From an uncultured Candidatus Saccharibacteria bacterium (GTDB taxonomy: Bacteria > Patescibacteriota > Minisyncoccia > Phycocordibacterales > Zambryskibacteraceae), in NCBI GenBank assembly GCA_964582295.1, contig CAZOQP010000001.1:9588-73587 (forward strand): 64,000 nt of DNA, in the 5' to 3' direction. The notes beneath the pieces were generated by a model. It saw nothing but the letters and a program-made list of their open reading frames with translations. It ran no database searches and was not told the DNA's origin. The number at the start of each line of letters is the position of its first letter. Position 1 is the first letter of the stretch. A program made the position numbers and the translations under genes. Below, one piece after another: positions 14,631 through 53,236 of the stretch.

Positions 14631-14690
14631 CTCTAATTATTATACATCCTGCAAAGTCAATATCTCTTTCATTCTCCACAAGGGCGCTCA

Positions 14691-15038
14691 TTCAACAGCA
14701 TTTTTCAAATAGCAATCGTTCGGGAGTCCCACTAAAAGAGACCACTCCGGGGCGTTTGCCCAAGTCTTAGTCTCTTTTAGTGGGACTCCCTCACTCTAAA
14801 TAACTCCAATTTGAAAAATGCTGTTGGATTCGCTTTAAGTTCTAATATTTAAGGAGCGAAGATAATACCCTTTTTCACACACGCGGGAGGTGATTTTAGA
14901 AATCAAGGAGTTGAGTAGGAAAATGGGAGTGTTTGAGGAAGCCGAAGGCTGACGAGTTGCCCATTTTACGTTATGAGACGACTATGATTTCGTAAGCACC
15001 GGAGCGGCAGCTGTTTGAAAAAGGGTGTTATCTGAGTG
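14691..15038. repeat. composite structured intergenic repeat, copy 1 (long hairpin + ~165-nt conserved core)
   Basis: Shares the core TTTTTCACACACGCGGGAGGTG.TTTTAGAAATCAAGGAGTTGAGTAGGAAAATGGGAGTGTTTGAGG...GAGTTGCCCATTTT.CGTTATGAGACGACTATGATTTCGTAA.CACCGGAGCGGCAGCTGTTTGAAAAA with copies at 39196 and 43847. Preceded by a ~134-nt hairpin (14691-14824). Confidence 0.8.
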
Positions 15039-15043
15039 ACGTC

Positions 15044-16168
15044 TTATATTATCTCCCTCAACTTCCTCAACCCCAATCCGATAGCAACCGCAAATTCAGG
15101 TCCCGTATCTTTAAGAACGTTCTCCAAAAAGGCGGGTGTTTCGGTTTTTGAAAACGGGTCACTCATCTCTACGGGCGTTTCAAAGCTTTCCTGTGCAAGG
15201 GTTGCCAATCCTTTGAGTGCCGAGCCGCCTCCCACGAAAAGTATCTTCTTTAGGTTTTTATTGTATTTGCGCTCAAAGTTTAATATCACGCGATTGGCCT
15301 CGGCAAAAATATATTCAAGCGAAAGATGCACGATGTCTTTCATATCTTTGTCGCCGCTATCTGTGAGGCCGACACTTCTTTTCATAACCTCCGCCTGATC
15401 TATCGGAAGTCCCAAAGATTTTGCAATGGCGATAGTGATGTCGTGCGAGCCGCGGTTTATAGTGTGTGAAAGCCGCACAATGCCGCGCTCCACCACATAA
15501 AGCTTGGTTGAAGCGGCGCCCATATCAAATATCATCACAGGCGCGATGGTTTCATCTAACGCCGCACGCATGGTGGAGAAAATTTCTATTTCGTAGAAAG
15601 TTGCTGAAAGCCCTGATGCCTTCACGATAGCGTCATATTTCTGGAGCACTGCATTGTGAATGGCGACCAGGAGCACATCCAAAGTTTTCTCGCGCGGCTT
15701 TGCAAGCACGGGCCCGCCTTCCGGATTGTCTTCTATCTCCACGAAATCTTTCGGGATAAGAGACCAATCAAGAGAGACTTCGGACATGGGAAGAGGGATA
15801 TACTTGCGGGCTTCTATCGGGATAAGGTTCTGAAGCTCCTTGGGGCCAACCTCCGGCACTTCAATAAGGGACATCAAGCTTGAGGAGAAAGGGATGGCAA
15901 GAGCGCATGATTTAGTGGACACATTCACTTCCTTTTCCTTCAGAAGATCGTTCAGGGCCTCTATTATTTTCTCTTTAGGAAGATTGGTGGCTTGCCCCAC
16001 GCTTCCCCCTGCATATGGACCGAGCGCCAATTCCCCGTATGTCTCAAGCACAGCCGTCTCGCCTTTTTTGCGGAGTTGCACTATCTTTATAGCTGAAGAG
16101 CCAATATCAATGCCGAGGATACTCTTTTCCTCTTTTTGAAAAATGCGGGAGAATGAAGGGAACTGCAT
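15044..16168 (-). CDS. pilM: type IV pilus assembly ATPase-like protein PilM (actin/HSP70 fold)
   Basis: 374 aa. The N-terminus ILGIDIGSSAIKIVQL matches the actin-like ATPase fold. Confidence 0.9.
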   Translation of the reverse strand: MQFPSFSRIFQKEEKSILGIDIGSSAIKIVQLRKKGETAVLETYGELALGPYAGGSVGQATNLPKEKIIEALNDLLKEKEVNVSTKSCALAIPFSSSLMSLIEVPEVGPKELQNLIPIEARKYIPLPMSEVSLDWSLIPKDFVEIEDNPEGGPVLAKPREKTLDVLLVAIHNAVLQKYDAIVKASGLSATFYEIEIFSTMRAALDETIAPVMIFDMGAASTKLYVVERGIVRLSHTINRGSHDITIAIAKSLGLPIDQAEVMKRSVGLTDSGDKDMKDIVHLSLEYIFAEANRVILNFERKYNKNLKKILFVGGGSALKGLATLAQESFETPVEMSDPFSKTETPAFLENVLKDTGPEFAVAIGLGLRKLREII

Positions 16169-16192
16169 AGGAAGTACATTATATCATCAGCC

Positions 16193-16831
16193 ATGAAAAG
16201 CTTAATTGAAAAAATACTTTCACTCATTTTTCCGAAAGGAGCAGGGGTGGAGGAGCTTGAAAAACTTTCTGCATCCGAATTGGTGCGCCTTTTGCCGCCT
16301 GGGCGCCAGGAAAATGGCATTTCTCCCCTCTTCTTATATAAAGACAGGCGTGTGAAAGCACTGGTGCACGAGATAAAACAGAATGCAAATGAAGTGCTTG
16401 CAGGAAAAGTAGCGGAGTTGATGGCTGAAAAGGTGCTTGAGTTTTTTGAAGACTCGCTTGTTTTCGGCGAGCATAAAATAGCTCTGGTGCCTGTGCCCAC
16501 ATCCGGGAAAAGGCAGGGCTCGCGCGGCTACAATCCGGCAGAAATGCTTGCACAAAAAATGGCAGCCGTGCGCCCAGACATTTTTGAGTACGCCCCAATA
16601 CTGGTGAAGATACGCGAAACGGAAAGACAGGCAAAACTTCGCAGGAAAGAGCGACTTACAAATCTTGTGGGAGCATTCAGAGCCGAACCTTTCGGCACGC
16701 CGAAAGGTTCGGCCTCCCCCGCCCTCATTATTGACGACGTCTCCACTACAGGCGCCACCATAACTGAAGCCAAGCGCGCTCTAACAGATAAAAATATCAA
16801 CGTTCACGGCACATCCGTCATCGCACGCTAA
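16193..16831 (+). CDS. comF: ComF family protein (phosphoribosyltransferase domain)
   Basis: 212 aa with PRTase motif LIIDDVSTTGATI. Adjacent to the pilus/competence cluster. Confidence 0.8.
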   Translation: MKSLIEKILSLIFPKGAGVEELEKLSASELVRLLPPGRQENGISPLFLYKDRRVKALVHEIKQNANEVLAGKVAELMAEKVLEFFEDSLVFGEHKIALVPVPTSGKRQGSRGYNPAEMLAQKMAAVRPDIFEYAPILVKIRETERQAKLRRKERLTNLVGAFRAEPFGTPKGSASPALIIDDVSTTGATITEAKRALTDKNINVHGTSVIAR

Positions 16832-16850
16832 CTTTTTTACCTCTTACCTT

Positions 16851-17366
16851 TTACCTCACCTGCGCTGTCGCCAAAGTATCCCAAATAGCACGGCGGAGTA
16901 CGGTTTCCTGTTGTTGTGTTGAGCTATCCACGGAGCATGTCGCATCGCTCGGCTCAAATATCAGATAAAAATTTTCAAATATTTTCACTTGCGGAGGCAT
17001 ACCATCTTTCGTTTTGCTTCCTTCAAGAAGGGTTACCGTGTTCCATTCCCCATTCTCGCCATTCGGTTTTGAAAGTTCGGCTTTATCAATGCGGCGAAAT
17101 ACTCCGAGAGTGCACATGGGCTCGTTCGTCTCCGGATTTGCAATAGAAACCGAAAGCGAAGTGCCACCATTTGGAACATTCTGTCTTATATATGCGAGGC
17201 CGTTCAAAGCTTCAAGTGTCGGGATAATCACCCCGAGCGCCGCAAAGCCCCCCTCTGCATTCACCACTGCCGCCTCATTTCTCACACCACCCCTCCCCAC
17301 CAGCCAGATGACAAGGATGATAACCACAATGACCGCTACCGTACCTATAAGAGTTTTTTTCTCCAT
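16851..17366 (-). CDS. hypothetical membrane-anchored protein
   Basis: 171 aa with an N-terminal TM helix. No recognisable domain. Confidence 0.55.
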   Translation of the reverse strand: MEKKTLIGTVAVIVVIILVIWLVGRGGVRNEAAVVNAEGGFAALGVIIPTLEALNGLAYIRQNVPNGGTSLSVSIANPETNEPMCTLGVFRRIDKAELSKPNGENGEWNTVTLLEGSKTKDGMPPQVKIFENFYLIFEPSDATCSVDSSTQQQETVLRRAIWDTLATAQVR

Positions 17367-17494
17367 TTTTTAATAATTAAGGGATATATACCCCGTGAGA
17401 TATGAAATACGAAGTGTCAGGTATTGATCAAAATTGGTTATCTCACGGGGTATACCCGTTGAGACGTTTCGCCCTATAGCCGCTTACATACGAA

Positions 17495-17529
17495 AAGGCC
17501 GTAAGGAAGCTCTGCTTCCTTACGGCCTT
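17495..17529 (-). terminator. rho-independent terminator
   Basis: AAGGCCGTAAGGAAGC-tct-GCTTCCTTACGGCCTT followed by a T-tract on the minus strand, 3' of gene 17552..18265. Confidence 0.7.
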
Positions 17530-17551
17530 ATTTGTTCCAGAGCAAAATGTT

Positions 17552-18265
17552 TTATCTCTTGTAGTTCCCTGAGTAGTGAAAATTGTGGGAATACTCCCAC
17601 GCGACCCTTGCCTCCTCGAGCATCCGATTGGCGTTCTTCGGGTAGTCCATCCACTGCCCGATAGCGGTGTCGTATTGACCTGTGTACCTGAATACCGCCG
17701 CAGCAAGTGCCTGCCTGAACCCTGCCGCTTCTTCTGCACCTCTCGGAGACAAAAGCTCATCTATCACGGATTCATAATCCCCAGGGCTACAGACCGCCCA
17801 CACATGGGGCCAATTCTTTGCCGCCGCCCGAAGAAGTGTCGGGCCGCCGATATCTATCTGTTCAATGCTGGGATTTCCTGCAAAATCATAAAGATTGCAG
17901 ACCACCAGGTCTATCATCTTCATGGAATGTTCCCAAGCCGCTTCCATATGCTCCACATTGGAGCGATCAGGAAGTATACCGCCGTGGATTTTATGGTGAA
18001 GCGTCTTCAAACGTCCTCCCATCATTTCAGGTAAACCCGTCACCTCTTCAATGGGAGTGTGCGGAATTCCATACTTCTCAAGCTCCCTCGCTGTGCCTCC
18101 GGTTGAGATGATTTCCCACCGGCCGATGTCTGTCAGAGCTTCGAACTTATCCAGTCCCCTTTTGTTGGTAACGGAGATAAGCGCCCGACGCCGTTCAATC
18201 GGTTCGTTCATTATCTGCCTCGCAAGTGTATTGTTAGGAAGCCACAGGTGCGGCTCCAAGAACAT
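17552..18265 (-). CDS. stand-alone IMP cyclohydrolase (PurH N-terminal MGS-like domain only)
   Basis: 237 aa matching the PurH IMPCH domain (ALISVTNKRGL...STGGTA...GGRLKTLHHKIHGGIL...NLYDF...IDIGGPTLLRAAAKN). No AICAR transformylase domain; a terminator follows. Confidence 0.75.
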   Translation of the reverse strand: MFLEPHLWLPNNTLARQIMNEPIERRRALISVTNKRGLDKFEALTDIGRWEIISTGGTARELEKYGIPHTPIEEVTGLPEMMGGRLKTLHHKIHGGILPDRSNVEHMEAAWEHSMKMIDLVVCNLYDFAGNPSIEQIDIGGPTLLRAAAKNWPHVWAVCSPGDYESVIDELLSPRGAEEAAGFRQALAAAVFRYTGQYDTAIGQWMDYPKNANRMLEEARVAWEYSHNFHYSGNYKR

Positions 18266-18300
18266 CCAGCCGCTACACTACTCGCCCCACCGAAACAGTC

Positions 18301-18333
18301 AAATACCCGCGAGAAAATCTCTCGCGGGTATTT
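18301..18333 (-). terminator. hairpin terminator
   Basis: AAATACCCGCGAGA-aaat-CTCTCGCGGGTATTT, 3' of ORF 18356..18622. Confidence 0.55.
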
Positions 18334-18355
18334 TAAAGCCAGAAAACTGCTACGG

Positions 18356-18622
18356 TCAGATAGATCCTCGAGAGTCCCAAGCACCTACACTCACTACGCG
18401 ATTCTGTTCCTGATAAGCATCCATCTTTTCACGTACTTGGTCCCAAGACGGCGCAATTACGGTATAGATTGGATTACCATCCGGCAAATCGCATTCTTCG
18501 GGATCCTCTAACTTATCCCACACCTCGGTGTAGACTCCAGTACTGTCTTCGACAATCGGTCCCGAAACCTTATACAGCCGACACCGATGATTTTGAATAC
18601 CAACCACGGCATTGTCCTGCAT
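18356..18622 (-). CDS. hypothetical small acidic protein
   Basis: 88-aa ORF downstream of the AbrB/MazE-like gene. No recognised domain. Confidence 0.45.
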   Translation of the reverse strand: MQDNAVVGIQNHRCRLYKVSGPIVEDSTGVYTEVWDKLEDPEECDLPDGNPIYTVIAPSWDQVREKMDAYQEQNRVVSVGAWDSRGSI

Positions 18623-18694
18623 GATGTCGCCTCTCCGATGAATGAGGTAAAGATCGTTCCTGCCCGCAATAATACCTTATTACGATAGATATTA

Positions 18695-18883
18695 TTATTT
18701 CTTCCTTTTCTTAGTACGAGCGTCGCGGATGATGAGTGCCCCGCCCGATTTCCTCACCTTCACCCTCTGCCTCTCCCTCCAGCCAAGGCTCTTAACCAAG
18801 TCGGCAGGCAAAGTAAGTCCAAGACTGGCCCGCCCCATCCTCGTCAGCTTCCTTGTATTTGTTTCTGTAGATTTCTTAGCCAT
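18695..18883 (-). CDS. AbrB/MazE/SpoVT-family DNA-binding protein (antitoxin-like)
   Basis: 62 aa. RMGRASLGLTLPADLVKSLGW...VKVRKSGGALIIRD matches a swapped-hairpin AbrB-type domain with a basic C-tail. Confidence 0.75.
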   Translation of the reverse strand: MAKKSTETNTRKLTRMGRASLGLTLPADLVKSLGWRERQRVKVRKSGGALIIRDARTKKRKK

Positions 18884-18915
18884 GTACGTACATATGTAAG
18901 TAGATATGTACGTAC
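18884..18915. promoter_or_regulatory. 12-bp inverted repeat GTACGTACATAT-N8-ATATGTACGTAC abutting the start codon of the AbrB-like gene (candidate operator)
   Basis: Perfect inverted repeat immediately 5' of the start codon at 18883. Confidence 0.5.
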
Positions 18916-18964
18916 ATTGTACATCAAACCTAATTTCATTCGAGTGATTACTTTAACAAAATGC

Positions 18965-19402
18965 TCATTTCTTATATAAAACAAAGAACGGTATTTCATC
19001 GATTCTTATATAGTTGAACATTTTATAATTTGCACGTCTAGCTGTTGAGGATAATTGACGCATTTTTAAATTTATTTTTGGAATAAAAGGATAGAATCTG
19101 ATTTCATGGTGTTTCTCCTTTTTATTTTTATCATCCCATTTAAAATTAGTTATAAGCGGCGGAACCATATAGCCTGATTTCATTACTTTTGAAATAATCT
19201 CCCACCCAGCACCAAAAATTATTGGCTTCGGTTTACTATTGTTTGTTTTTACTTGTGCACGAAAAAGGCATGCCTTACATTGAATATCATATAAGGGGTA
19301 ATTCTTGGGAAGCGCCATAAGTTTCTTTCCACAGTTAGGGCACGGAACAAGTTCTACAACCTCCAATTCTCCTGCATCCCCCGAATCCTTATTTTTACTC
19401 AT
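18965..19402 (-). CDS. DpnI-like PD-(D/E)XK nuclease catalytic domain (no winged-helix domain)
   Basis: 145 aa. PCPNCGKK...YDIQCKACLFRAQVK...GAGWEII...SSTARRANY parallels DpnI motifs (CPNCG, D..EFELK, APTARRAGW). QVK stands in place of ELK. Confidence 0.55.
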   Translation of the reverse strand: MSKNKDSGDAGELEVVELVPCPNCGKKLMALPKNYPLYDIQCKACLFRAQVKTNNSKPKPIIFGAGWEIISKVMKSGYMVPPLITNFKWDDKNKKEKHHEIRFYPFIPKINLKMRQLSSTARRANYKMFNYIRIDEIPFFVLYKK

Positions 19403-19467
19403 ACGAGCATTAGATCATCCAAGGTTTTATAACACAAGACTAGAAAATATTCCTAAATTAAAAATCT

Positions 19468-20205
19468 TTATTTTTGAGCAGCTATCATATCTTTAAGTTT
19501 TTCAATTGAAAGAATAATTGCCTTTTTTCGATGGATGATTCTGTGACAATTTGAGCATACGGGAACAACATTTTTCAGTGCATCCATGATTGACTGTTCA
19601 AGATTATCTTCATACGCAAAAATTGGTTTTAGATGATGAATTTCAATGAATCCTTTACCAGCAAGGCCATAGAACTCTTCAAAATTGAAATTGCAAGCTT
19701 CGCAATAAATTTTATTGTGCTTTTTGAAATGTTCTTTCGCAATCTCAATTAACTTCTTCGATCGAAATCTTGTTTTTACATGGTTAGATCTAATGAAACC
19801 TTCTTCAATAATTAGGTTAACGAAATTTTGATCAATAACTTTTTCTCTATCATTTTCAGAAAAACCATTAGTTTCTATGAAGTCAAAGCCGTCAATGTTG
19901 TCAGAAATATATTTTTTACCTAAGTCAGTTATTTTAAGTAACCCTTTATTTTTACTAATTGTATCGTAGGTTGCTAAACCTTTTTTAAATATACTTCTTT
20001 GGGAAATACCTCTATGAGAAATTATATTTCTTACTTTTTGACTAAAGCGAGTATCCTTGCGATTAGCACTCAGCTCAAGATCTTTCCCTTCTGGTTTTAA
20101 AGTTTCTGTTAGATAAATAATCAGGTTTGATGTCAAAATTCCATCCTCTTTTGACGAAAGATAGACTAACGTGGGCATTATTAAATCACTCTCACTGTAA
20201 ATCAT
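19468..20205 (-). CDS. winged-helix + HNH endonuclease
   Basis: 245 aa. The C-terminus CEACNFNF...IEIHHLKP...VCSNCHRIIH is an HNH domain. The N-terminal region resembles the DpnI C-terminal winged helix. Confidence 0.75.
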   Translation of the reverse strand: MIYSESDLIMPTLVYLSSKEDGILTSNLIIYLTETLKPEGKDLELSANRKDTRFSQKVRNIISHRGISQRSIFKKGLATYDTISKNKGLLKITDLGKKYISDNIDGFDFIETNGFSENDREKVIDQNFVNLIIEEGFIRSNHVKTRFRSKKLIEIAKEHFKKHNKIYCEACNFNFEEFYGLAGKGFIEIHHLKPIFAYEDNLEQSIMDALKNVVPVCSNCHRIIHRKKAIILSIEKLKDMIAAQK

Positions 20206-20207
20206 AT

Positions 20208-21455
20208 TTAGAAGTTATAAATTATAAGATGTTCAACCTCCCTATCATTACGACCTTTTATATTGTACAAATAAGTTTTATCGAAAGTCTTAATTTTAAT
20301 ATTTAACCTGTTTTTATATAAACCTAAAATAAATGGGGTTTTTTTGATTATCAGGATAAATTTTGCTTTTGTTTTATATAAGCAATTAGCTAATCTTTTC
20401 TGATCATTCTTATCAAAAGATTGTTTTTCGTAATCACTAAAATCTGTATCGTATGGTGGATCTAGAAAGATAAAATCTTTTGGTGATAAATCTGTTTTTT
20501 TAATTATCTCTTCAAAATCTACATTTTTAATAGAAGTATTTTTAAAAATTCTTTCTATATTCTCACTTAATATATAGTCAACTTTTTTACGAAAATCTTT
20601 TGAATTATAAGCTATGCCTCCGTAAGGAATATTAAAATGACCCTTGGAATTAAACCTAAACATTGAACCATAGCAAAATTCTCTTACAAAATAATAATTT
20701 GCAATCTTTTTTGATAAAGAAGTCGGATATCTATTTCCATTAAAATTCATCACATCCCTAAAGTGCATGTAGAAACCACTTCTAAACGCTGTTTCAATAT
20801 TCATACGTAGATCTCTGTCATCTATATTCCCTCGCTTTATTTCGATTTCCTTCACCCTCCCAAGTTTAGATATTAGGTTAGAAATGATTTGTTTTAATAG
20901 GTTCTGGTCATCAAGACAAAAACTTTTATGGAATAGTCCATTAAATTTCTTCTCCTCAGCTTTTAGGTAATTATTTACAATATTTTTTAAATTCTCCTTG
21001 GTGATTTTGTCTTTTTTGAAATCAGAATATAATTTTATTAATTTGTCCTCAAAAATATCAATATACTTTGGTATTTTTTCCCAATTATCAACGTAATCAT
21101 AAATTTCTTTTTTAAATTCTTTTTTATTTTTTTCTCCTTTTATAAATTTATAGAAAAAAACTAATTCTTCGCAGATATCGCTTACCACTGCTTCTTTGGG
21201 CTGCAATCTCAAAAAAACTGCACCGCCACCAAAAAATGGTTCTATATATCTATCAAAATCTGGGATTAAATGTTGTATGTATTTAAACTCTTCTGACTTA
21301 CCCCCCGGCCATTTAATAAGAGGCCTGGCATACACGGACTGATTTCCCAAGATGTCACCGCCATTAAAAAACCTAGATTCTTGTAGTACACTCCGATGCT
21401 TTTTATATGATGACAACGTACTCTTTTTTTTAGACCCAAAAAGAATTATCCCCAT
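20208..21455 (-). CDS. Dam-family (D12 class) N6-adenine DNA methyltransferase
   Basis: 415 aa with KWPGGK...EPFFGGGAV (AdoMet binding) and DPPY catalytic motif (FLDPPYDTDF). Confidence 0.85.
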   Translation of the reverse strand: MGIILFGSKKKSTLSSYKKHRSVLQESRFFNGGDILGNQSVYARPLIKWPGGKSEEFKYIQHLIPDFDRYIEPFFGGGAVFLRLQPKEAVVSDICEELVFFYKFIKGEKNKKEFKKEIYDYVDNWEKIPKYIDIFEDKLIKLYSDFKKDKITKENLKNIVNNYLKAEEKKFNGLFHKSFCLDDQNLLKQIISNLISKLGRVKEIEIKRGNIDDRDLRMNIETAFRSGFYMHFRDVMNFNGNRYPTSLSKKIANYYFVREFCYGSMFRFNSKGHFNIPYGGIAYNSKDFRKKVDYILSENIERIFKNTSIKNVDFEEIIKKTDLSPKDFIFLDPPYDTDFSDYEKQSFDKNDQKRLANCLYKTKAKFILIIKKTPFILGLYKNRLNIKIKTFDKTYLYNIKGRNDREVEHLIIYNF

Positions 21456-21542
21456 AGTTTAATTATATATGAAACATATCCACAAAAAGTAAGGGCTGTG
21501 GATCAATTTTAAGAACATATACCCTAAAAGTTAAGGCGGTTT

Positions 21543-21995
21543 TTGGGAATTACAACCACATATCGACTCTATGTATACAACATTATTGGTCGTCGTGGGG
21601 ATATTGTTCCGATATTAGAACCTAAAATGCAGCTCAAATTCGAGAATCTTGATAAAAGTAAACAGAAATTAAGAGCTATCTACAAAGTTCACTCAGATTG
21701 GTTTGAGGTGCTTCAACCCAAGCCTACTAAGAGTAGGAATAATGTGGATTATTCCATCCAACTCAAAAGACTCCAGCTGCAACCTGGAAGATGGCCGCGT
21801 ATGAATAAAGATTACCTTTGTTCTCCCTATCAAAATCCGCTGAAGGGTTGTTACTGCCGAAGAGATGAGGACGCTGAGGAGTGCGAAGACGAGCCAATTC
21901 ATGAGTTAATTATAGCCCTCCTTGGAGATATTCGAGAAATTCACATGGCAGTAAAGATTAGCTGCTATAATATTAACTGTGACAACATCCCATGA
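21543..21995 (+). CDS. hypothetical Cys-rich protein
   Basis: 150-aa ORF in the AT-rich island, overlapping the start of the next gene by 4 nt. No recognised domain. Confidence 0.45.
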   Translation: MGITTTYRLYVYNIIGRRGDIVPILEPKMQLKFENLDKSKQKLRAIYKVHSDWFEVLQPKPTKSRNNVDYSIQLKRLQLQPGRWPRMNKDYLCSPYQNPLKGCYCRRDEDAEECEDEPIHELIIALLGDIREIHMAVKISCYNINCDNIP

Positions 21996-22627
21996 TCATG
22001 CATAAATTAAATTCAAAAAATAAATATGCATTCACGACTGATAAGCTAATCCGCCAAGAACTGAAGAAAACGATTGAAAAGAGATATAAGGACGCGCCTG
22101 TGAGAATTATCGAGGAGTTTGGTTTAGATGATCATGCTACGCGAATTGATATTGCTGTAGTAAATGGAATTTTACATGGTTATGAAATCAAGAGTGACTT
22201 GGATACACTAGGGAGGTTGCCGAAGCAAATGAGTTCTTATAACTCTATTTTCGACCAAATAACTTTGGTTGTTGGAACCCAGCATCTTTATGATGCTTTC
22301 AATATTGTGCCAGACCATTGGGGCATCATGGTCGCTAAGATAGATGGAAAAGGCTCTGTATATTTCAATCACATACGGACAGCCTCTGAGAATACCTCCC
22401 AAGAGAAACTTCCAATAGCAAGACTTCTGTGGAGAGATGAAGCCATCCATTTACTTGAAGATATTGGTTGCGCGCGAGGATATAAGAGTAAGTCAAAAGA
22501 TTTAATTCATAGCAGAATTTCTGATCTTCTTGATCTGAATACTCTCAAAGAAAGAGTGCGCGAGACGCTACTTCTTTCTAGGACTGATTGGAGAGCTGGG
22601 ACAGTACCAGTGCTATATGGTGACTAA
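21992..22627 (+). CDS. sce7726-family-like protein with PD-(D/E)XK nuclease motif
   Basis: 211 aa. RIDIAVVNGILHGYEIKSDLDTLGRLPKQ fits a D-x12-E-I-K restriction-endonuclease-like core. Family resemblance is from memory. Confidence 0.55.
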   Translation: MIMHKLNSKNKYAFTTDKLIRQELKKTIEKRYKDAPVRIIEEFGLDDHATRIDIAVVNGILHGYEIKSDLDTLGRLPKQMSSYNSIFDQITLVVGTQHLYDAFNIVPDHWGIMVAKIDGKGSVYFNHIRTASENTSQEKLPIARLLWRDEAIHLLEDIGCARGYKSKSKDLIHSRISDLLDLNTLKERVRETLLLSRTDWRAGTVPVLYGD

Positions 22628-23759
22628 TCCCTGCTGAGATCCAGTAGGTTGCTGCACCAGTTCCCTTACCTTTATTTTTTTCATCTTTCTTAACAAGTTC
22701 CATATAGGCAGGAAAATAATCTGACTTTTCTTTTATGCGCCTGTCGCCTTCGCTGAAAGCTTCCCCATAAAAGAAGGTACTATCATTCACGAGTTGTTGC
22801 GCATGTGCCAGATACTGATCGTTTCTCTTCTTCTCGCCTCTAAATATTATCCAGTTATTCTCGTGAGTGTATTTCAGCGTTGCAGACGCTTGCATGTATC
22901 GCAGTGCCTCGCTATGCATTGGATAGCGTATCGTATAATCTCCAAAAATTGGTTCTCGCACGAGTTTCCTGCCTTTTTTTGCAGCTAACCATAACTGCCA
23001 GTCATTGCGCGCCTCCATGCATGGACTATCTTCCACTTTGAGATGCCCGACATTCACAGGAAATGATCCGCTAGCAAAGATGACTGCTCTCCAAGCACTT
23101 AGGTTATGAATTTCCTGCACGTTTGAGAACAATTCTGCATATGACGCTTTTGTAGCATCATCGAGATATTTAATATCTAGGAGTAAATCTATTTGGTTTT
23201 CTTTGATGCCGGTCTCAACAACAAAGCTTCTCAATTTTGAGTTCAGATCATCAACCTTTTTCAAATCTGATAGCGTAACTCGTATGCAGATACCAACGAT
23301 AGTGCCTTTCTTGAACTGCTGCACAATTTCGTTCGCAACTTCCTTATCATCGTTTAAGTAGACTACAGGTCTTATATCTACTCCTTTTGCGTGACAAGTT
23401 TCAGCAACCTTTTGGACGCTCTCGACCTTGAGATTTGTTGTTCCAGCTCCATCGTGGATAAGATTGAAATCAATGGTTGCGCTTAGCTTGCCACGGCATT
23501 TTTCAATCTCATCCGGAATTTCCTTCAGACGAAAGTTTTTATACTTCTGAACCACCTCGTTATGTATCTCTTCTTCCGATTTACGAACTCTGGTCTTCTT
23601 ACCTTCAATAACAACAGTTTTATCCTGTGAAACACCGGGTAATACAATTTCAAGAACAGGGAGCAGATTGGCTCTATCTTTTTCAGGAACATTCGTCAAA
23701 GCCGCGATCTCAGCAGCTCGCCATTTAAGAATTGGGCTGTATAAGTAATTTTCTTTCAT
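22578..23759 (-). CDS. sce7725-family-like (beta-protein-like) partner protein
   Basis: 393 aa. N-terminus YSPILKWRAAEIAALTNV...LPVLEIV. Convergent with, and overlapping, the sce7726-like gene. Assignment tentative. Confidence 0.5.
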   Translation of the reverse strand: MKENYLYSPILKWRAAEIAALTNVPEKDRANLLPVLEIVLPGVSQDKTVVIEGKKTRVRKSEEEIHNEVVQKYKNFRLKEIPDEIEKCRGKLSATIDFNLIHDGAGTTNLKVESVQKVAETCHAKGVDIRPVVYLNDDKEVANEIVQQFKKGTIVGICIRVTLSDLKKVDDLNSKLRSFVVETGIKENQIDLLLDIKYLDDATKASYAELFSNVQEIHNLSAWRAVIFASGSFPVNVGHLKVEDSPCMEARNDWQLWLAAKKGRKLVREPIFGDYTIRYPMHSEALRYMQASATLKYTHENNWIIFRGEKKRNDQYLAHAQQLVNDSTFFYGEAFSEGDRRIKEKSDYFPAYMELVKKDEKNKGKGTGAATYWISAGISHHIALVLSQLSNQS

Positions 23760-23764
23760 ATCAG

Positions 23765-24997
23765 TTAAGCTGAATTAAATTCAGGAAAATACTTACGAAC
23801 TTTCGCTTCGCCAACTACTTTGCTCAGACGTTTGAAATCTCTTTCAAACCGCATTCTTCCCGCGATGATAGCAACATGTACACCCAATTCCTTTGCCAAA
23901 GATGTTGCGGCAGTCTTGGATGGAATTAGTTTTGCGGGGCTAATTTCCCATTTCTCCGTAGGAACAAGTGCTTCACCGGCCAAGCTATCTGCTTCGTGCT
24001 CCATTACTCCAATATCTCTACCTTTGATTTCATCGAGTTCGTCATAAAACAACTCACTATCGTTGTTCATGTGAAGTGCAACATGAGCCAACTCGTGCAT
24101 GAGCGTAAACCAGAAGTTATCTATACGGTCGTACCTAAGTGTCAGCCCTATTATAGGATTGTCTTTATTAAGGAAGATTGCCGCTCCGTCAAGTTTCGTT
24201 TTTTTAAACTGTTTTTCAATAACCAAAATAATTCCGTTATCTAGGAGAAACTTTTGCGCCAGAATCGGCGCACCGTCCTTAACACTTAGCTTGGCGAGAT
24301 CTTTCATGAAGTTGAGATTTACCGTGCTAGATTTATATTTCTTCTGTACTTTAACTTTTTGCGCTTTATAGAGGACGCAACCAAGCCACGCCGCGAGAGC
24401 TTGTTTATTTGTTGTTGGAGAAGTTCGGTAGTTTGTTTGTCTAAGCAAAGCACCAAAGTTCAGACTTGCATGATTAAGTGGTGAGAAAAATCTAGAGACT
24501 ACAGCCATTCGACTATCTTCTTTGGGACTGGTATCGTTGAGATACCCACGACTTTTTATTTCCTTGATGACGTCTAGGTGTATGTTTTCAAAGAGATCTT
24601 CTGTCTCTTCTGCAGGCTGTATAAGCACCTTAGCAGGTATACTTAGTTCTTTTTCAAGAGTACGGATCATTTTAAGAGTTAGAGGCGTTTTTCCAGAAAA
24701 TACTTCTGACACCTTACTCTTGCTGCCAATGTAGTGAACCATGTCAGAATCTTTGAGACCCATTTGTTCCATTCTGAACTTGATAGCCTCGACAGGATCA
24801 GGGAGAGAAGAAGGAAAATGGCTCTTTTCATAATCCTCAATCAAGGTGGCTAGCAGGTGGAGTTTGTCTGCTTCAGCAGAACCATTTTTTGGATTCATCA
24901 AAATTAGGCTCTCAAGTATTGCAAGAGCTTCCTTGTGATCTGCTTCTGTTTTAATTATTTTTATTTCCATAAAATTAAGTGATTTTCCACTTTTCAT
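23765..24997 (-). CDS. HigA-like XRE-HTH antitoxin fused to ImmA/IrrE-family Zn-metallopeptidase
   Basis: 410 aa with an N-terminal HTH and a C-terminal HEXXH (HELAHVALH) COG2856-type domain. Confidence 0.75.
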   Translation of the reverse strand: MKSGKSLNFMEIKIIKTEADHKEALAILESLILMNPKNGSAEADKLHLLATLIEDYEKSHFPSSLPDPVEAIKFRMEQMGLKDSDMVHYIGSKSKVSEVFSGKTPLTLKMIRTLEKELSIPAKVLIQPAEETEDLFENIHLDVIKEIKSRGYLNDTSPKEDSRMAVVSRFFSPLNHASLNFGALLRQTNYRTSPTTNKQALAAWLGCVLYKAQKVKVQKKYKSSTVNLNFMKDLAKLSVKDGAPILAQKFLLDNGIILVIEKQFKKTKLDGAAIFLNKDNPIIGLTLRYDRIDNFWFTLMHELAHVALHMNNDSELFYDELDEIKGRDIGVMEHEADSLAGEALVPTEKWEISPAKLIPSKTAATSLAKELGVHVAIIAGRMRFERDFKRLSKVVGEAKVRKYFPEFNSA

Positions 24998-25262
24998 ATT
25001 CAGTGTGAGTGCCGATTTTCTTGACCAAAACCATCTGATTTTCGTAATCGATAATCACCCACAGCCGGTACCTGTTGCCACATATGTTAAATATCGTGCT
25101 CTTGTTTCCCACGGAGTCTGCAGTCGGGAATTTCTGCTTCAGTTCGTGAGGGGTCTTCCATGAGGCATCCTCGATTTCGCTCTCCCAGCTTTCGATCTTG
25201 CTCTTTGCGTCTGTATGCTGCCGTTTGAAGTCGTGCAGGGGTTGCTTACCTAGTAATATCAT
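24975..25262 (-). CDS. higB: HigB-family type II toxin (RelE/ParE superfamily)
   Basis: 95 aa. IFNICGNRYRLWVIIDYENQMVLVKKIGTHTEYEK matches the HigB signature. Sits upstream of, and overlaps, the HTH gene as in higBA. Confidence 0.8.
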   Translation of the reverse strand: MILLGKQPLHDFKRQHTDAKSKIESWESEIEDASWKTPHELKQKFPTADSVGNKSTIFNICGNRYRLWVIIDYENQMVLVKKIGTHTEYEKWKIT

Positions 25263-25289
25263 GGCTTGTAACGATATTTCACATTTATA

Positions 25290-25310
25290 ATTGTTCCCGA
25301 TTCAGGAACA
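25290..25310. promoter_or_regulatory. palindrome TTGTTCC-cgattca-GGAACAA upstream of higB (candidate operator)
   Basis: 7-bp inverted repeat about 30 bp upstream of the higB start. Confidence 0.35.
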
Positions 25311-25448
25311 ATACTCTATGTGATAGACTAATGCAAGCGTTTCAAAAGAAGGAAATGGTTTAGGAGATCAGTCAATACCGTTCCCTTTTTAAGTTACTAA
25401 ACTATAAACGTAAGAACCGACATTTTATGCCGGTTCAAGCATTGAAAT

Positions 25449-25617
25449 CAGGCGGAGGGGATGGGAATTTCACTGCTCGCCCCTCGGCAAGCTCGGGGCT
25501 GCGCTTTAAAACCTGCGGGTTTTAAAGTTTCCACCACGGGAAACTCCCGTTTCCCGACCTCATCGAGTCTGAGGACTCTCAGAGTCTAAACGACCCTTCC
25601 CCGGTTCAAATCCCATC
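25449..25617. repeat. hairpin-rich element built from inverted partial copies of the tRNA-Ser 3' end
   Basis: GGCGGAGGGGATGGGAATTT (5' end) and GGTTCAAATCCCATCCCC (3' end) are inverted and direct near-copies of the tRNA-Ser T-arm/acceptor. Internal perfect hairpins: CTTTAAAACC-tgcg-GGTTTTAAAG, GGGAAAC-tccc-GTTTCCC, GAGTCTGAGGACTC. Confidence 0.6.
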
Positions 25618-25663
25618 CCCATAAACAATTTTAAAATATCAAAAGATATTGAAAATTGTCTTG

Positions 25664-25752
25664 CGGAGGGGATGGGATTTGAACCCATGCGGGATGTATT
25701 AGACCCCGACGGTTTAGCAAACCGTTCCGTTAGACCGCTCCGGCACCCCTCC
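25664..25752 (-). tRNA. tRNA-Ser (anticodon GCU), class II with long variable arm, CCA not encoded
   Basis: The reverse complement reads GGAGGGGTGCCGGAGCGGTCTAACGGAACGGTTTGCTAAACCGT CGGGGTCTAATACATCCCGCATGGGTTCAAATCCCATCCCCTCCG. Anticodon loop UUGCUAA. Confidence 0.85.
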
Positions 25753-25828
25753 ATTGCTCCGCCAATTTATCACATTTTCCCCTTCTTTTCTCCTCAATTT
25801 CCATTCCAATCCCTTTCACCTCTCCCAC

Positions 25829-25876
25829 CCCACAATCTATTCCAGTATTCTCAAGAATACTGGAATAGATTGTGGG
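25829..25876. promoter_or_regulatory. 48-bp palindrome (22-bp perfect stems, loop TCAA) upstream of the ArsR-family regulator
   Basis: CCACAATCTATTCCAGTATTC-tcaa-GAATACTGGAATAGATTGTGG, about 55 bp upstream of the regulator start. Confidence 0.5.
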
Positions 25877-25930
25877 TATGATATAAAATTTATGGGTGTA
25901 AAATTTGCAGGTATAGATATAAATATACAT

Positions 25931-26200
25931 ATGAAAAATTTTAGACAACTCGAGCGATTGGTAAAAGGATTCGCCAATCACCGTAGAATCGAGATCCTCA
26001 ATCTTCTCGATAAGACTCCGGAACTTTCAGTATTTGAGGTTGCCGAAAGATTGAAGATCAACTTCAAGACTGCTTCAGAACACATCCTCCGTCTTGCTAT
26101 CGCCGGCCTGGTGGTGAAAAGAAACGAAGGAAATAACGTGCGACATGCACTTACCAACACCGGAAAATCTATTCTCAAATTCTTGAGAAGACTAGAATAG
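25931..26200 (+). CDS. ArsR/SmtB-family winged-helix transcriptional regulator
   Basis: Start set at the internal ATG (MKNFRQLERLVKGFANHRRIEILNLL...VFEVAERL...RHAL). The track ORF 25754..26200 runs through the upstream palindrome. Confidence 0.7.
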   Translation: MKNFRQLERLVKGFANHRRIEILNLLDKTPELSVFEVAERLKINFKTASEHILRLAIAGLVVKRNEGNNVRHALTNTGKSILKFLRRLE

Positions 26201-26253
26201 ATTTGGATAATAATTGTCCTGATCTTCTTATATTCATTTAGTACAATACCGCC

Positions 26254-28380
26254 ATGCTTGATGAACTCTTTCGACTGAATCCGGCTCAGAAATCCGCCCT
26301 GAAAAAACTGGGTATCACTTCCGTTGAATCTCTCCTTTACCATATCCCCACGCGCTACGCTTCTTTTGATGGGAATAATTCCATAGCGAGCGCGCGGGCA
26401 GGAGAAGATATCGCGCTCATAGTAAACATAGAAAAAATAGAGACCAAAAAAGGATTCCGCTCAAAAATACCAATGGCAACAGGGCGCGTATCAGACCCCA
26501 CAGGGAAAATGGACGTAGTGTGGCTTCGCCAGCCGTACATTGCACGCATGTATCTTGCCGGTTCCACCATAAAAATCTCTGGCAAAGTTTCGGAAAGGAA
26601 CGGAAAGATCTCAATGGTGAACCCTAAAGTGCATCCGCTCACAGGAGAAGAGAACACTCCAATCTTTAGCGGCAAAGAAGGAGAAAGTTTGACTCCTGTA
26701 TATGCGGAAAGCCGCGGAGTGACAAGCGAATGGCTGCGGAATGCGGCTATTCGTCTCATAAAAAACAAACTGCATGAAGCTATAGAAGATCCAATACCGC
26801 CGGAAATGCTTTCTCGTTTTAATCTGCCTACTTTGAAAACCGCTTTTGTGTGGGCGCACATGCCGAAAAAACACGAGCACGCAGAAGCCGCTCGCAAGCG
26901 CTTTGCATTTGAAGAAGTTTTTTTCATACAGTTGGAAAAGCAGAAAGAGCGTGCGGAATGGCAAGCCCATCAGGCATTCGTTATTGAACCGGCAGAAGAA
27001 ACAGAAAGATTCATGGAATCGTTCCCCTACTCGCTCACGGCGGGACAGAAAAAAGCTATTGCGGATATTTTCGGGGATTTTGGCTCGGGTCGGCCGATGG
27101 CGCGGCTTCTTGAAGGCGACGTCGGCTCCGGCAAGACGGCCGTGGCGGCCGCCACGGCCTACGCCACTATCCGCACCCGGCCCAAAGGGCAAACTTTCGG
27201 AGCGCTTCAGGTGGCATACATGGCGCCCACAGAAATACTGGCATCCCAGCATTTTGAATCCTTCATACAATATTTTGTGGGTTCAGGAATTCAGATAGGC
27301 CTCATTACCGGTTCCGGCTGCAGAAAATTCCCGTCCAAAATAAAACGAGACGGCTGGACGGATATTTCCAGAACACAATTATTGAAATGGGTTGAGAACG
27401 GAGAAATACCAATTCTCATAGGTACGCATGCGCTCATACAAAAATCCGTGAAATTCAAACACTTGGCATATGCTGTGGTGGACGAGCAGCACCGCTTCGG
27501 CACGCGCCAGCGCGCGGCCTTGATACAAAAAGACGGCCGCGCGCCGCATCTTCTCTCCATGACAGCCACCCCTATTCCCCGCACATTGGCTCTCACGGTG
27601 TTTGGCGATCTTGATCTCACAGTGTTAGACGAAATGCCGCCGGGACGCAAACCAATAATGACCAAAATAGTGCCGCCGGATCAAAGATTTCATGCATATG
27701 AAGAAGTACGAAAGGAATTGACAGCGGGCAGGCAGGCGTATGTAATCTGCCCGCGTATAGACGAGCCGGATCCGGACAAGGAAATGGCAGTGCAGGCAAA
27801 ATCGGTGAAAGAAGAAGCGGCACGCCTCAAGAAAGAAGTTTTTCCTGAATACGAGATAGGAATTTTGCACAGCAAGATGAAGCCCTCGGAAAAAGATGAA
27901 GTAATGAAAGAATTTTCGGAAGGGCGCATACATATTTTGGTCGCAACATCGGTTGTGGAAGTGGGAGTGAACGTTCCGAATGCCACGTCTATCATCATTG
28001 AAGGTGCAGAAAGGTTCGGCCTGGCACAGCTTCATCAGCTGCGCGGACGTGTGGTGAGAAGCACTCATCAATCACGCTGTTTCGTGTTCTCTGAAGGAAC
28101 GAGTGAAAATACTTTTAGACGTCTGAAATCTTTTGAAAAAGCCAAAAATGGTTTTGAATTGGCTGAATTTGACCTGGAAACACGCGGTGCGGGAGACCTT
28201 GCAGGCGACAAGCAGTGGGGAGTTACCGACCTCGGTATGGAAGCCCTTAAAAATATAAAGATGGTTGAAGCGGCACGGAACGAAGCCAAAACCATAATTG
28301 AAAGCGATCCGGAGCTTTCAAAACATCCATCTCTCCAATCTCACCTGTCCGGACGCCGAACTAAAATTCATTTGGAATAG
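26254..28380 (+). CDS. recG: ATP-dependent DNA helicase RecG
   Basis: 708 aa with wedge domain, Walker A GDVGSGKT, DEQH box and a C-terminal helicase domain. Confidence 0.93.
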   Translation: MLDELFRLNPAQKSALKKLGITSVESLLYHIPTRYASFDGNNSIASARAGEDIALIVNIEKIETKKGFRSKIPMATGRVSDPTGKMDVVWLRQPYIARMYLAGSTIKISGKVSERNGKISMVNPKVHPLTGEENTPIFSGKEGESLTPVYAESRGVTSEWLRNAAIRLIKNKLHEAIEDPIPPEMLSRFNLPTLKTAFVWAHMPKKHEHAEAARKRFAFEEVFFIQLEKQKERAEWQAHQAFVIEPAEETERFMESFPYSLTAGQKKAIADIFGDFGSGRPMARLLEGDVGSGKTAVAAATAYATIRTRPKGQTFGALQVAYMAPTEILASQHFESFIQYFVGSGIQIGLITGSGCRKFPSKIKRDGWTDISRTQLLKWVENGEIPILIGTHALIQKSVKFKHLAYAVVDEQHRFGTRQRAALIQKDGRAPHLLSMTATPIPRTLALTVFGDLDLTVLDEMPPGRKPIMTKIVPPDQRFHAYEEVRKELTAGRQAYVICPRIDEPDPDKEMAVQAKSVKEEAARLKKEVFPEYEIGILHSKMKPSEKDEVMKEFSEGRIHILVATSVVEVGVNVPNATSIIIEGAERFGLAQLHQLRGRVVRSTHQSRCFVFSEGTSENTFRRLKSFEKAKNGFELAEFDLETRGAGDLAGDKQWGVTDLGMEALKNIKMVEAARNEAKTIIESDPELSKHPSLQSHLSGRRTKIHLE

Positions 28381-28454
28381 TCCGCCCGCTTGGACTTGAA
28401 CCAAGGACCCTCGAGGTATAAGCTCGATGCTCTAACCAACTGAGCTACGGGCGG
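28381..28454 (-). tRNA. tRNA-Ile (anticodon UAU), CCA not encoded
   Basis: Canonical cloverleaf: CCGCCCG-TA-GCTC-AGTTGGTTA-GAGC-A-TCGAG-CTTATAC-CTCGA-GGGTC-CTTGG-TTCAAGT-CCAAG-CGGGCGG-A. Anticodon positions 34-36 are UAU. Confidence 0.8.
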
Positions 28455-30854: not shown

Positions 30855-31328
30855 ATGACGAAAAAAAGCACGAACTCAAACAGCCATGCAAAACCTTACG
30901 CGGAAAACCGCAAGGCGTATTTCAATTACGAAATTCTGGAGGAAATAGAAGCCGGCTTAAAGCTCCTGGGATTTGAGGCAAAGGCGGTGAGGGCGGGCAA
31001 AATATCCCTGGCGGGTTCCTATGCGGCCGTGCGCGGCGGAGAGCTCTTTCTGGTAAATGCCCGTATAGAGCCCTATCAGCCCAAAAACACCCCTCCTGAA
31101 TACGAGCCACTGCGCTCCCGTGTCCTACTCGTCTCCAAAAAAGAAGCCACCCGGCTGGCCGGTTTTGAGGCCGCCCAGGGCTTGACATTGATACCCCTCT
31201 TGGTGTATAATAAAGGAAGCGTTATCAAGCTCCGGCTAGGTGTCGCCCGTGGAAAGAAAAAGGGCGACAAGCGTCAGACAATAAAGAAGCGCGAGGCCGA
31301 ACGCGAGATGCGCAGAACATTGAAATAA
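30855..31328 (+). CDS. smpB: SsrA-binding protein
   Basis: 157-aa SmpB fold with a basic C-terminal tail (GKKKGDKRQTIKKREAEREMRRTLK). Confidence 0.9.
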   Translation: MTKKSTNSNSHAKPYAENRKAYFNYEILEEIEAGLKLLGFEAKAVRAGKISLAGSYAAVRGGELFLVNARIEPYQPKNTPPEYEPLRSRVLLVSKKEATRLAGFEAAQGLTLIPLLVYNKGSVIKLRLGVARGKKKGDKRQTIKKREAEREMRRTLK

Positions 31329-53213: not shown

Positions 53214-53236
53214 TACGGGGGAGAACCATAATAGTG

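Follow-up and report, generated by a model that had tools for sequence, protein, structure and literature searches.

Why does a small bacterial genome keep the same long hairpin three times between the genes of its core operons? The question is raised by a 64,000-nucleotide stretch of DNA from an uncultured Candidatus Saccharibacteria bacterium (contig CAZOQP010000001.1, positions 9,588 to 73,587), referred to here at its full length as the window, in which an intergenic repeat with a conserved core of about 165 nt is found at 14691-15038 (copy c1), 39196-39612 (c2) and 43847-44190 (c3). Genomes of the Candidate Phyla Radiation (CPR) measure about 1 Mb and contain almost no spare DNA. They keep non-coding hairpins of 170-420 nt in core operons such as spc/S10, secY-adk, type IV pilus, clpP, greA and rnc, and hairpin modules even within an rRNA intron. 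The loci belong to an uncatalogued family of long non-coding hairpin repeats, seen here only in Patescibacteria (Paceibacterota/Minisyncoccia-type CPR). The interpretation that is tentatively favoured for this family is that of a new non-autonomous mobile DNA hairpin of REPIN/BIME-like kind, selected in the form of a single + strand.

The three loci lie on the + strand, at the positions and in the common orientation given by an initial annotation of the sequence, and their proposed placement at operon-internal or 3' intergenic sites was borne out: c1 separates pilM from a pilN-like gene, c2 separates rplT from a beta-CASP RNase gene and c3 separates secY from adk. Pairwise BLAST connects c1 with c2 at 86% identity over 207 nt (E 3e-64), c1 with c3 at E 1e-43 and c2 with c3 at E 3e-52; the cores alone are 89-92% identical, and an unfiltered covariance-model search of the window returns three full copies and no more. 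The core is split by an apex of variable length and enclosed by arms that are unlike between copies and complementary within each copy. Both the core sequence as first quoted, with its internal pairing AAAATGGG/CCCATTTT, and the outer helices ACCCTTTTTC/GAAAAAGGGT, CAACAGCATTTTT/AAAAATGCTGTTG and GTGCAGTATTTTT/AAAAATACTGCAC are present, and the outer helix of c1 is longer than earlier noted (AGATAAT/GTTATCT, with one G.U pair). The arm pair CAACAGCATTTTTCA/TGAAAAATGCTGTTG surrounds the core in c2 and a different interior, that of the upstream hairpin, in c1; as a whole, each locus is closed by a short outermost helix, GTCGCTC...GAGCGGT. On either strand, the loci reach folding energies far below those of shuffled controls (z = -8.7 to -14.6). 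Frame shifts had been said to rule out a conserved peptide, and indeed the apices differ in length by 2 nt and about 25 nt, so that no reading frame is common to the copies. A small-protein gene was rejected on account of these apex indels and of a start codon that is not conserved: by eye, the AUG after AAGGAG opens 9, 19 and 24 codons in c1, L005 and c2, reads ACG in c3 and is absent in L010 (the prefix L denotes sequences other than the window).

Relatives were collected from syntenic contigs, by way of SecY and PilM homologues, and by a relaxed pattern scan of species-representative genomes, the pattern requiring four conserved motifs; the sequence read amounts to 64 kb for the source genome and to flanking stretches no longer than 10 kb for the relatives. 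The names that the sources give to the SecY relatives place the organism of the window itself among the Patescibacteria (CPR), in the Paceibacterota/Minisyncoccia type. The collection holds 15 distinct full-length cores, the window included, and one weak inverted copy, all from Patescibacteria metagenome-assembled genomes (MAGs). Strict patterns, with an exact or a transition-tolerant 5' loop, gave chance matches only in viral, genome and metagenome collections (phage structural genes and one low-complexity contig), the relaxed pattern had no match in viral contigs, and BLAST of copy c2 found none among phages and plasmids. The initial annotation had proposed a structured non-coding element or a MITE-like (miniature inverted-repeat transposable element) repeat and had suggested an Rfam search. 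At the gathering threshold, Rfam 15 recognizes only a tmRNA and four tRNAs in the window; copies c2 and c3, searched at E<=10, return sub-threshold miRNA/snoRNA noise outside the core only, and ten related loci return 16S rRNA, tmRNA and a group I intron only. No Rfam family thus matches the element, even at E<=10, and the proposal of a non-coding structured element or MITE-like repeat is supported. Ribozymes and known large-RNA classes were compared by eye on both strands (hammerhead-, 6S- and SRP-like features) with no match, and a search for a linked protein gene found only housekeeping neighbours. Literature searches on intergenic palindromic repeats or miniature inverted-repeat elements of Patescibacteria yielded no description of a REPIN-type element in this phylum.

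How firmly is the fold itself conserved? RNAalifold predicts, from 12 sequences, a rod of five helices in which both sides change in 19 of 40 pairs. The main covariation alignment, of 14 sequences, was fitted to the model; pairing holds in 95.9% of its cells, compared with 78% in shuffles, both-sided change affects 22 of the 40 pairs, and the covariation score of 0.527 exceeds the 0.18 of shuffles (0/500 reach it) and the 0.05-0.11 of slid partners. The core thus shows the significant covariation expected of a structured non-coding RNA in general, though on a model-fitted alignment, and REPIN DNA hairpins behave alike: since these commonly show compensatory changes (PMC3116915), such changes alone are no argument for RNA. 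The claim of covarying helices in the initial annotation stands for the inner helices P2-P4, which covary strongly on the larger alignment, but not for the outer helices of the three paralogues. There, 8-13 bp are wholly different around a core that is about 90% identical, and compensatory point substitution since the divergence of the paralogues cannot account for this. The outer arms are locus-specific or recombined modules that reflect locus history, recombination or inverted duplication, and outer stems covary only between genomes. The outer stem that follows rplB in L010 repeats, in inverted form, a 5' flank that is unpaired in the orthologous L005 copy. The asymmetric internal loops GAG, TAG, CTGTTTGAG, GAGTT, CGT and CGACTAT are kept in copies that were found by the model and not by the pattern; in model-found copies the search-pattern motif AAGGAG varies (AACGAG, ACTTAG, AATGAG).

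Where the copies lie, and in which orientation, adds a second layer of regularity that the initial annotation did not contain, as it did not contain the antisense relation of the + strand to the gene, the doublets or the gain and loss at orthologous sites. Specifically, on the gene-sense strand the element begins 0-13 nt past a stop codon in 13 copies, the preceding genes being pilM, secY, rplB and clpP (two genomes each), rplT, a beta-CASP gene, greA, rnc and one unnamed gene. Relative to the core as the initial annotation writes it, the gene found 3' of it is encoded on the opposite strand in 12 of 13 cases; L013, the second L022 copy and a copy within an intron (L021) are the exceptions in position or orientation. 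The best-folding strand, that is, the + strand of the initial annotation, is antisense to the adjacent gene. It folds better than its complement in all 14 copies tested, by 3-20 kcal/mol, and its consensus fold reaches -26.1 kcal/mol compared with -16.8 kcal/mol for the other strand. Wobble cells are G.U on the + strand in 20 cases and A.C in 5, the unpaired bases are purine-rich and C-poor (A 268, G 232, T 216, C 102), and an invariant UUUG/CGAG helix pairs on the + strand only, with rare variants from U.G to C-G and from G-C to G.U. A mutational bias was rejected as the source of this asymmetry: cytosine deamination on the non-template strand would produce the opposite of what is observed.

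All structural signals thus fall on the + strand, and they lend weight to the main alternative, possible though rather unlikely, in which this strand is a structured RNA, either a cis-acting insulator or terminator against convergent or antisense transcription or an antisense or trans-acting small RNA. Such an RNA may have been domesticated from a mobile hairpin, with the units of a doublet each facing the transcription of the other side. It would fit with outer-stem imperfections that are G.U on this strand (three in L022, one in c1), with the retention of the fold at orthologous sites, with a 3' end that always adjoins a convergent stop codon and has U-rich sequence after it, and with the convergent genes of c2 and L010, each of which has a unit, face to face. 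The transcription signals speak against it. Promoter scans of the + strand found no promoter-like site of the sigma-70 type, and no upstream motif is conserved in + orientation except CTTA(A/G)AGCGA; nine copies lie in co-directional operons, so that a promoter would be needed within the downstream gene. A terminator scan called neither the core nor any whole locus, only a hairpin of c2 (A2, described below) and small chance-level sites in c3, and the U-richness is expected anyway from the antisense of a stop codon and Lys/Glu codons. The intron copy in L021 would, furthermore, require antisense transcription of an rRNA gene, and L013 and the second L022 copy are in the other orientation.

Could it then be the sense strand that matters? 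Terminator-like hairpins follow the element on this strand in c2 (by scan) and in L016 and L017 (by eye), and judging from them the sense, weaker-folding version is very probably transcribed. An element acting in the 3' untranslated region or intercistronic spacer of the mRNA could protect the mRNA 3' end, provide a processing site or modulate translation of the next gene, the last of these perhaps through CUCCUU/CCUCC loops that mimic anti-Shine-Dalgarno sequences. REP (repetitive extragenic palindromic)/BIME and ERIC elements are thought to act in this way. The start 0-13 nt past the stop codon in 13 copies, the hairpins just named, which would make transcription almost certain, and the location past highly expressed housekeeping genes (secY, rplB, rplT, clpP, greA, rnc, pilM) are consistent with such a role, as is the presence in the same niches (L008, L010) of an unrelated-looking hairpin, 'family 2', as if some structure were wanted there. 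A sense-strand function is nonetheless quite unlikely: this strand is the weaker folder in every copy and the wobbles lie on the other, relatives lack the element at the same sites, and AAGGAG, the complement of CUCCUU, was imposed by the search pattern and varies in model-found copies.

The architecture of the loci becomes clearer when the element is read in gene-sense direction. In most copies, the unit then consists of a stop codon, 0-13 nt, (G/C)CGCTC, an irregular hairpin of 150-200 nt and (C)TCGCT(C/T)TAAAG, and the core of the initial annotation is the reverse complement of this hairpin. In each window locus, one full unit and one degenerate unit ('hairpin A') seem to be joined tail to tail as an inverted doublet, and the L022 locus, orthologous to c1, has the same full plus inverted arrangement. 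The facing tails of such a doublet would give rise to 'hairpin B' and its two heads to the outermost helix, 'P0'. The frame of hairpin A in c2 and c3, GTCGCTC-GGGG...CCCC-TCGCTCCTTAAG, also surrounds a diverged core after secY in L010. In c2 each of the two convergent genes has a unit directly past its stop; the convergent genes of L010 likewise have one each, the beta-CASP side carrying a family 2 hairpin. CGCT(C) motifs mark the bounds of most units: doublets are bounded only by an inverted motif of 5-7 nt (CGCTC...GAGCG) and single units by direct CGCT(C), and most copies have CGCTC on the left and TCGCT on the right, these being absent in L016, L013, L012 and the L010 copy at rplT. Family 2 is itself multi-copy (L008 2167-2320 and 11273-11460; L010 15855-15985), with copies 76-86% identical, and lies right past the stops of rplB and secY in L008 and of the beta-CASP gene in L010. 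It contains a canonical-looking terminator, AAACCCCGCCAGCGCGGGGTTTT, with a GC stem and a U tract, and its flanks are of the same CGCTC/CTCGCTCTAAAG type as those of the core units. Family 2 may be related to the core, either distantly or through deletion, and its presence with these flanks at the rplB and secY stops means that different hairpin families share a small set of niches.

The whole c1 locus (14684-15039, +) is closed by GCGCTCA (14684-14690) and TGAGTG (15033-15038). Its core hairpin (14860-15033, +; 160 bits) has the outer stem AGATAATACCCTTTTTCA/TGAAAAAGGGTGTTATCT, the conserved interior and a short apex, and begins, on the - strand, 10 nt after the pilM stop (15044-15046). Hairpin A of c1 (14691-14826, -) is probably an inverted unit that has degenerated and had its interior replaced: its outer arms CAACAGCATTTTTCAAA/TTTGAAAAATGCTGTTG are the core arms of c2, its interior AAAAGAGACCACTCCGGGGCG...GTCTTAGTCTCTTTT also occurs in c2, and the model matches it weakly on the - strand (14686-14824, 21.8 bits, E 0.005). 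Hairpin B (14830-14861, no strand assigned), with the sequence TTCGCT..TTAA...TTAA..AGCGAA, corresponds to the facing tails of two inverted units.

The c2 locus (39198-39608, +), closed by GTCGCTC (39198-39204) and GAGCGGT (39602-39608), occupies the entire spacer between the convergent rplT and beta-CASP genes. The core hairpin (39429-39598, +; outer stem CAACAGCATTTTTCA/TGAAAAATGCTGTTG; 156.7 bits) lies, on the - strand, about 13 nt past the stop of the beta-CASP RNase gene (39612-39614), with its CGCTC head 6 nt past that stop. Hairpin A (39205-39332, +; GGGGTATTCTCTGAAAATG...CATTTTCAGAGAATACCCC), flanked by the same GTCGCTC (39198-39204) and by TCGCTCC, begins 10 nt past the rplT stop, and we take it to be a degenerate unit oriented in the rplT sense; its frame, ACGCTC-GGGG...CCCC-TCGCTTTAAAG, is again found around the diverged core after secY in L010. 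The additional hairpin A2 (39347-39377, -; AAATCCACGTAGGACTGTCCTACGTGGATTT followed by TGATTTTGG) looks like a terminator when read in the beta-CASP sense and is similar to the hairpins on either side of a Y1 transposase gene elsewhere in the window. Hairpin B (39396-39425, no strand assigned) consists of TCGCTCCTTAAG...CTTAGAGCGA. An ORF (open reading frame) call at 39344-39532, within c2, exemplifies the spurious calls that such repeats can seed.

The c3 locus (43852-44188, +) is closed by GTCGCTC and GAGCGGT and comprises hairpin A (43859-43952, +; GGGGTGATGACGAAAAGAG...CTCTTTTCGTCATCACCCC; flanks GTCGCTC at 43852-43858 and TCGCTCC), hairpin B (43953-43982, no strand assigned; again TCGCTCCTTAAG...CTTAGAGCGA) and the core hairpin (43983-44181, +; outer stem AAAGTGCAGTATTTTTCA/TGAAAAATACTGCACTTT; 146.8 bits), whose apex is a 42-nt perfect palindrome. 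On the - strand its CCGCTC head motif lies 6 nt past the secY stop (44194-44196), and the 12-mer AGATGACCGCTC just past this stop repeats AGATTACCGCTC in the 3' coding end of secY (11/12). A separate, 40-nt perfect palindrome (CTCCTAGATAACATACGATAT|ATCGTATGTTATCTAGGAG) is located at 52083-52122 inside an intact reverse-transcriptase ORF, and its central 24 nt equal the centre of the c3 apex palindrome (44069-44092). The ends of Logan contig L004, from the same organism, lie in these two palindromes. This organism is also present in SRR6868922.

Is the element a fixed part of these operons or a visitor? Comparison of orthologous sites indicates gain and loss. The spacer between the beta-CASP gene and rplT measures 9-10 nt in L005 and L008, whereas the window and L010 have an element in it; in L010 the core adjoins rplT and not the beta-CASP gene. 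Similarly, the pilM/pilN spacer holds the element in the window and in L022 (about 540 nt) but not in L024 (49 nt) or L026 (38 nt). The L022 locus stands between perfect 9/9 direct repeats, GGAGAATAA, which include the pilM stop; c1 shows a decayed relic of this repeat, and L008 has a similar duplication, GAAATAA..CTCGCTC. The initial annotation had named a plain MITE, with target-site duplications and conserved terminal inverted repeats (TIRs), as the outcome that would count against its structural reading. The loci do not clearly match this outcome: their inverted terminal motifs measure only 5-7 nt, and a clear direct repeat is seen at one site only. Two empty sites carry tandem duplications, GTGAATAA GTGAATAA after pilM in L024 (6584-6600) and CGCT CGCT between the beta-CASP gene and rplT in L005 (15285-15297), which may be excision footprints or preferred targets.

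One copy lies in an interrupted rRNA gene. In L021, it lies within a group I intron of the 16S rRNA gene, between the 5' splice site and the modelled intron core, in transcript-sense orientation; the intron splits the gene at GGATTAGAT|ACCCCTGTAGTCC. The 16S rRNA gene of L021 (145-2126, -) is interrupted several times, with other long insertions further upstream, and the group I intron itself (Rfam RF00028, 83 bits, 340-618) is placed at the GGATTAGAT|ACCC site with the core in its 5' part. L014, furthermore, carries a truncated tandem second copy. Identity is 89-92% between the window copies and 96% between L013 and L016, compared with 71-77% for orthologous-site pairs; the three copies of L010 are 73-81% identical. 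The difference between the window copies and the orthologous-site pairs therefore indicates that the element either spread recently in the window genome or was homogenized there by gene conversion.

Perfect palindromes have also been inserted into the L022 and L010 copies, and they recall a process that needs no selection at all: palindrome-generating replication errors, such as template switching, snap-back synthesis or arm-to-arm conversion. The L010 outer stem that copies its flank in inverted form would fit this process, as would palindromes that share a centre and differ in their arms even in the reverse-transcriptase ORF, where 24 nt of 52083-52122 equal the c3 apex. There is only a slight chance that such errors explain the family, since asymmetric loops and specific unpaired nucleotides are kept across many genomes, which arm conversion would erase, and the strand bias of the wobbles is left unexplained.

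The tentatively favoured interpretation, a non-autonomous mobile hairpin DNA, can be put as follows. Units are gained and lost at gene ends and, within a genome, either recently copied or homogenized. The fold is kept by compensatory change on the strand complementary to the mRNA, which suggests that selection acts on a single strand of this polarity. Most likely this strand is a DNA hairpin, and it would be handled by some single-strand enzyme such as a transposase of the HUH/Y1 type. What the host mRNA carries, in its 3' untranslated region or intercistronic spacer, would be no more than the weaker complementary hairpin. Two causes, alone or together, may explain the orientation bias: the way in which units insert, and selection that keeps the stable, Shine-Dalgarno-rich strand out of transcripts. 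The data show the repeat itself, its conserved fold, the strand asymmetry, the placement and orientation, and the variable occupancy of orthologous sites, whereas how the units move, which enzyme acts on them and that they serve no host function are inferred.

Several observations weigh against this interpretation. Conservation of the four motifs required by the relaxed scan is partly ascertainment. A systematic search for direct repeats at 16 boundaries found none above chance, though its interval at L022 was misplaced and the repeat there was recognized by eye, and neither an enzyme linked to the element nor, in the window or the flanks of the relatives, a parent insertion sequence (IS) with the same ends was seen. 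The window does contain a Y1 (HUH) transposase gene (54559-55209, +, within 54529-55222; Pfam Y1_Tnp 1.4e-10), whose 3' end adjoins the rplB stop in convergent orientation. Its best NCBIfam match is REP_Tyr_transpos, the REP-associated tyrosine transposase (RAYT), at 46 bits with a cutoff of 80, and it is flanked by two identical ACATAGGCAAGACCTATGT hairpins that are not core units; a link between this transposase and the core was rejected because the flanking hairpins differ from the core. If the genes are co-oriented with replication, as judged from GC skew only, which is confounded by coding bias, the structured strand would be the leading-strand template, which is reportedly opposite to the IS200/IS605 rule from IS608. 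The structured part of about 165 nt with its invariant asymmetric loops persists among genomes whose SecY proteins are 80% identical or less, and any REP or MITE end is much smaller and less RNA-like. Orthologous copies (c1/L022, L005/L010), finally, keep the fold over long divergence, and this maintenance exceeds the need of a dead insertion. REP/REPIN elements, for their part, are long-lived and inherited vertically.

The pattern of the Y1-flanking hairpins occurs 5 times against 0.3 expected, and the extra hairpin of c2, ACGTAGGACAGTCCTACGT (39353-39371), is a relative of them with compensatory change. The presence of a Y1 gene also brings to mind a non-autonomous PATE of the IS200/IS605 type, in which the core would be a guide-RNA-like (omega-RNA-like) scaffold or a transposase substrate inserted 3' of CGCTC and the related motif TCGCT would form the right end of the element. 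CGCTC...TCGCT does surround hairpins of quite different sequence, long TIRs and, mostly, target duplications are lacking, and the orientation is strongly biased. An element of this type is nevertheless very unlikely: no TnpB or IscB gene adjoins any copy, Rfam gives no match, the structure is one long palindrome instead of two subterminal hairpins, the 9-nt direct repeat of L022 does not fit, both orientations occur in convergent spacers and are tied to the element's own gene rather than to replication, and the Y1 gene has other flanking hairpins.

A bolder proposal is that the core represents a new class of structured nucleic acid that works antisense to housekeeping operons, with the placement at stop codons as part of its mechanism and not a side effect of selection. 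This is unlikely on present evidence; such a class would take the form of an RNA insulator or terminator that shields gene 3' ends against convergent transcription in these small, tightly packed genomes, or of a single-stranded scaffold or guide of a mobility or recombination system. The family would be of broader interest, either as a new long-lived genomic parasite or symbiont of the REPIN type, in a phylum for which the literature searches yielded none, or as a new regulatory RNA. On a practical level, the repeats inflate the apparent intergenic space of MAGs and can seed spurious ORF calls, and they probably fragment short-read assemblies, as suggested by a Logan contig from this organism that breaks off within the apex palindrome of c3.

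Other features of the window complete the picture. A complete diversity-generating retroelement (DGR) lies between rpsS and rplB (51827-54309, -). Its reverse transcriptase is encoded at 51827-52705 (RVT_1 7e-21, YADD motif). The template repeat occupies 53229-53376 and its variable counterpart 53699-53846, where the 202-aa target ORF (53701-54309) has its 3' end; every mismatch between the repeats falls at a template A. A link of the core to the DGR reverse transcriptase or target was rejected, the L005 ORF beside a core not being homologous to the DGR target of the window. Terminator-like hairpins of about 34 nt (AAATAAACCCGCCAGCCAGCTGGCGGGTTTGTTT and variants), unrelated to the core, stand at gene ends at 293, 28779, 31136, 59645 and 63136. 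A low-GC segment at about 16000-28000 (0.40, compared with 0.47-0.48 elsewhere) encodes an HNH protein, a D12-class adenine methyltransferase, a 'Beta protein' (PF14350) and a Peptidase_M78/IrrE-like protein, and is probably a horizontally acquired restriction or defence island. The tmRNA gene (31344-31725, +; Rfam 104 bits) adjoins smpB (30855-31328), and the four tRNA genes are located at 51-122, 209-279, 25664-25752 and 28381-28454. After ndk, a spacer of about 360 nt (41375-41738) has no convincing ORF and no Rfam match; the corresponding spacer is about 370-510 nt long in the syntenic L005, L008 and L010.

How does the family compare with known systems? With intrinsic terminators, bidirectional ones included, it shares a hairpin at the gene end followed on the + strand by U-rich sequence, and family 2 holds a canonical-looking one; the outer stems of the core, in contrast, are A/U-rich rather than the G+C-rich stem and U tract of a terminator, its internal loops are large, the scan does not call it, and it also occurs inside operons. 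The PATEs and omega-RNAs of IS200/IS605 elements resemble it in the related short motif at left flank and right end of most copies, in the apparent lack of classical TIRs and, mostly, of target-site duplications, in orientation bias and in a structured non-coding part of more than 100 nt. They differ from it in that no TnpB, IscB or known omega-RNA was found (neighbours, Rfam), that the core is one long rod-like hairpin, and that its orientation in convergent spacers tracks the gene and not replication. Compared with bacterial MITEs and with palindromic repeats transcribed into mRNA, such as ERIC, the core shows no long conserved TIRs, no parent IS was seen in the DNA read, and a clear target duplication occurs at one site only; it has deep cross-species covariation, invariant asymmetric loops and a fold on the strand antisense to the host gene.

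Closer likenesses are found among extragenic repeats. Like bacterial MITEs and the ERIC, Correia/NEMIS, RUP, BOX and Rickettsia RPE elements, the units are non-coding imperfect palindromes of 100-200 nt, and with all of these they share a location between operon genes, probable co-transcription, a modular or nested build and presence or absence between strains. Like REP/REPIN-RAYT systems and the BIME mosaics of enterobacteria, they are extragenic and multi-copy, form hairpins and inverted doublets and sit at gene 3' ends; REPIN hairpins commonly show compensatory changes as well (PMC3116915), and a RAYT-like Y1 gene is present in the window. Of the hallmarks of REP/REPIN elements (a 20-40-nt palindrome, a head tetranucleotide and doublets), only the doublets are found here, and A2 of c2 (ACGTAGGACAGTCCTACGT) alone is REP-like: the core unit measures 150-200 nt rather than 20-40 nt, has a conserved irregular interior and lacks a conserved GTAG-type head. 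The single-copy gene flanked by the same repeats that characterizes a RAYT is likewise not seen, since the Y1 gene has other flanking hairpins, and the position of the core past stop codons and its strand are fixed. The family is thereby placed nearest to REPIN/BIME- and ERIC/Correia-type repeats, because its members are multi-copy, non-coding and hairpin-forming, are arranged in doublets, are gained and lost, and are nested, in one case in an intron.

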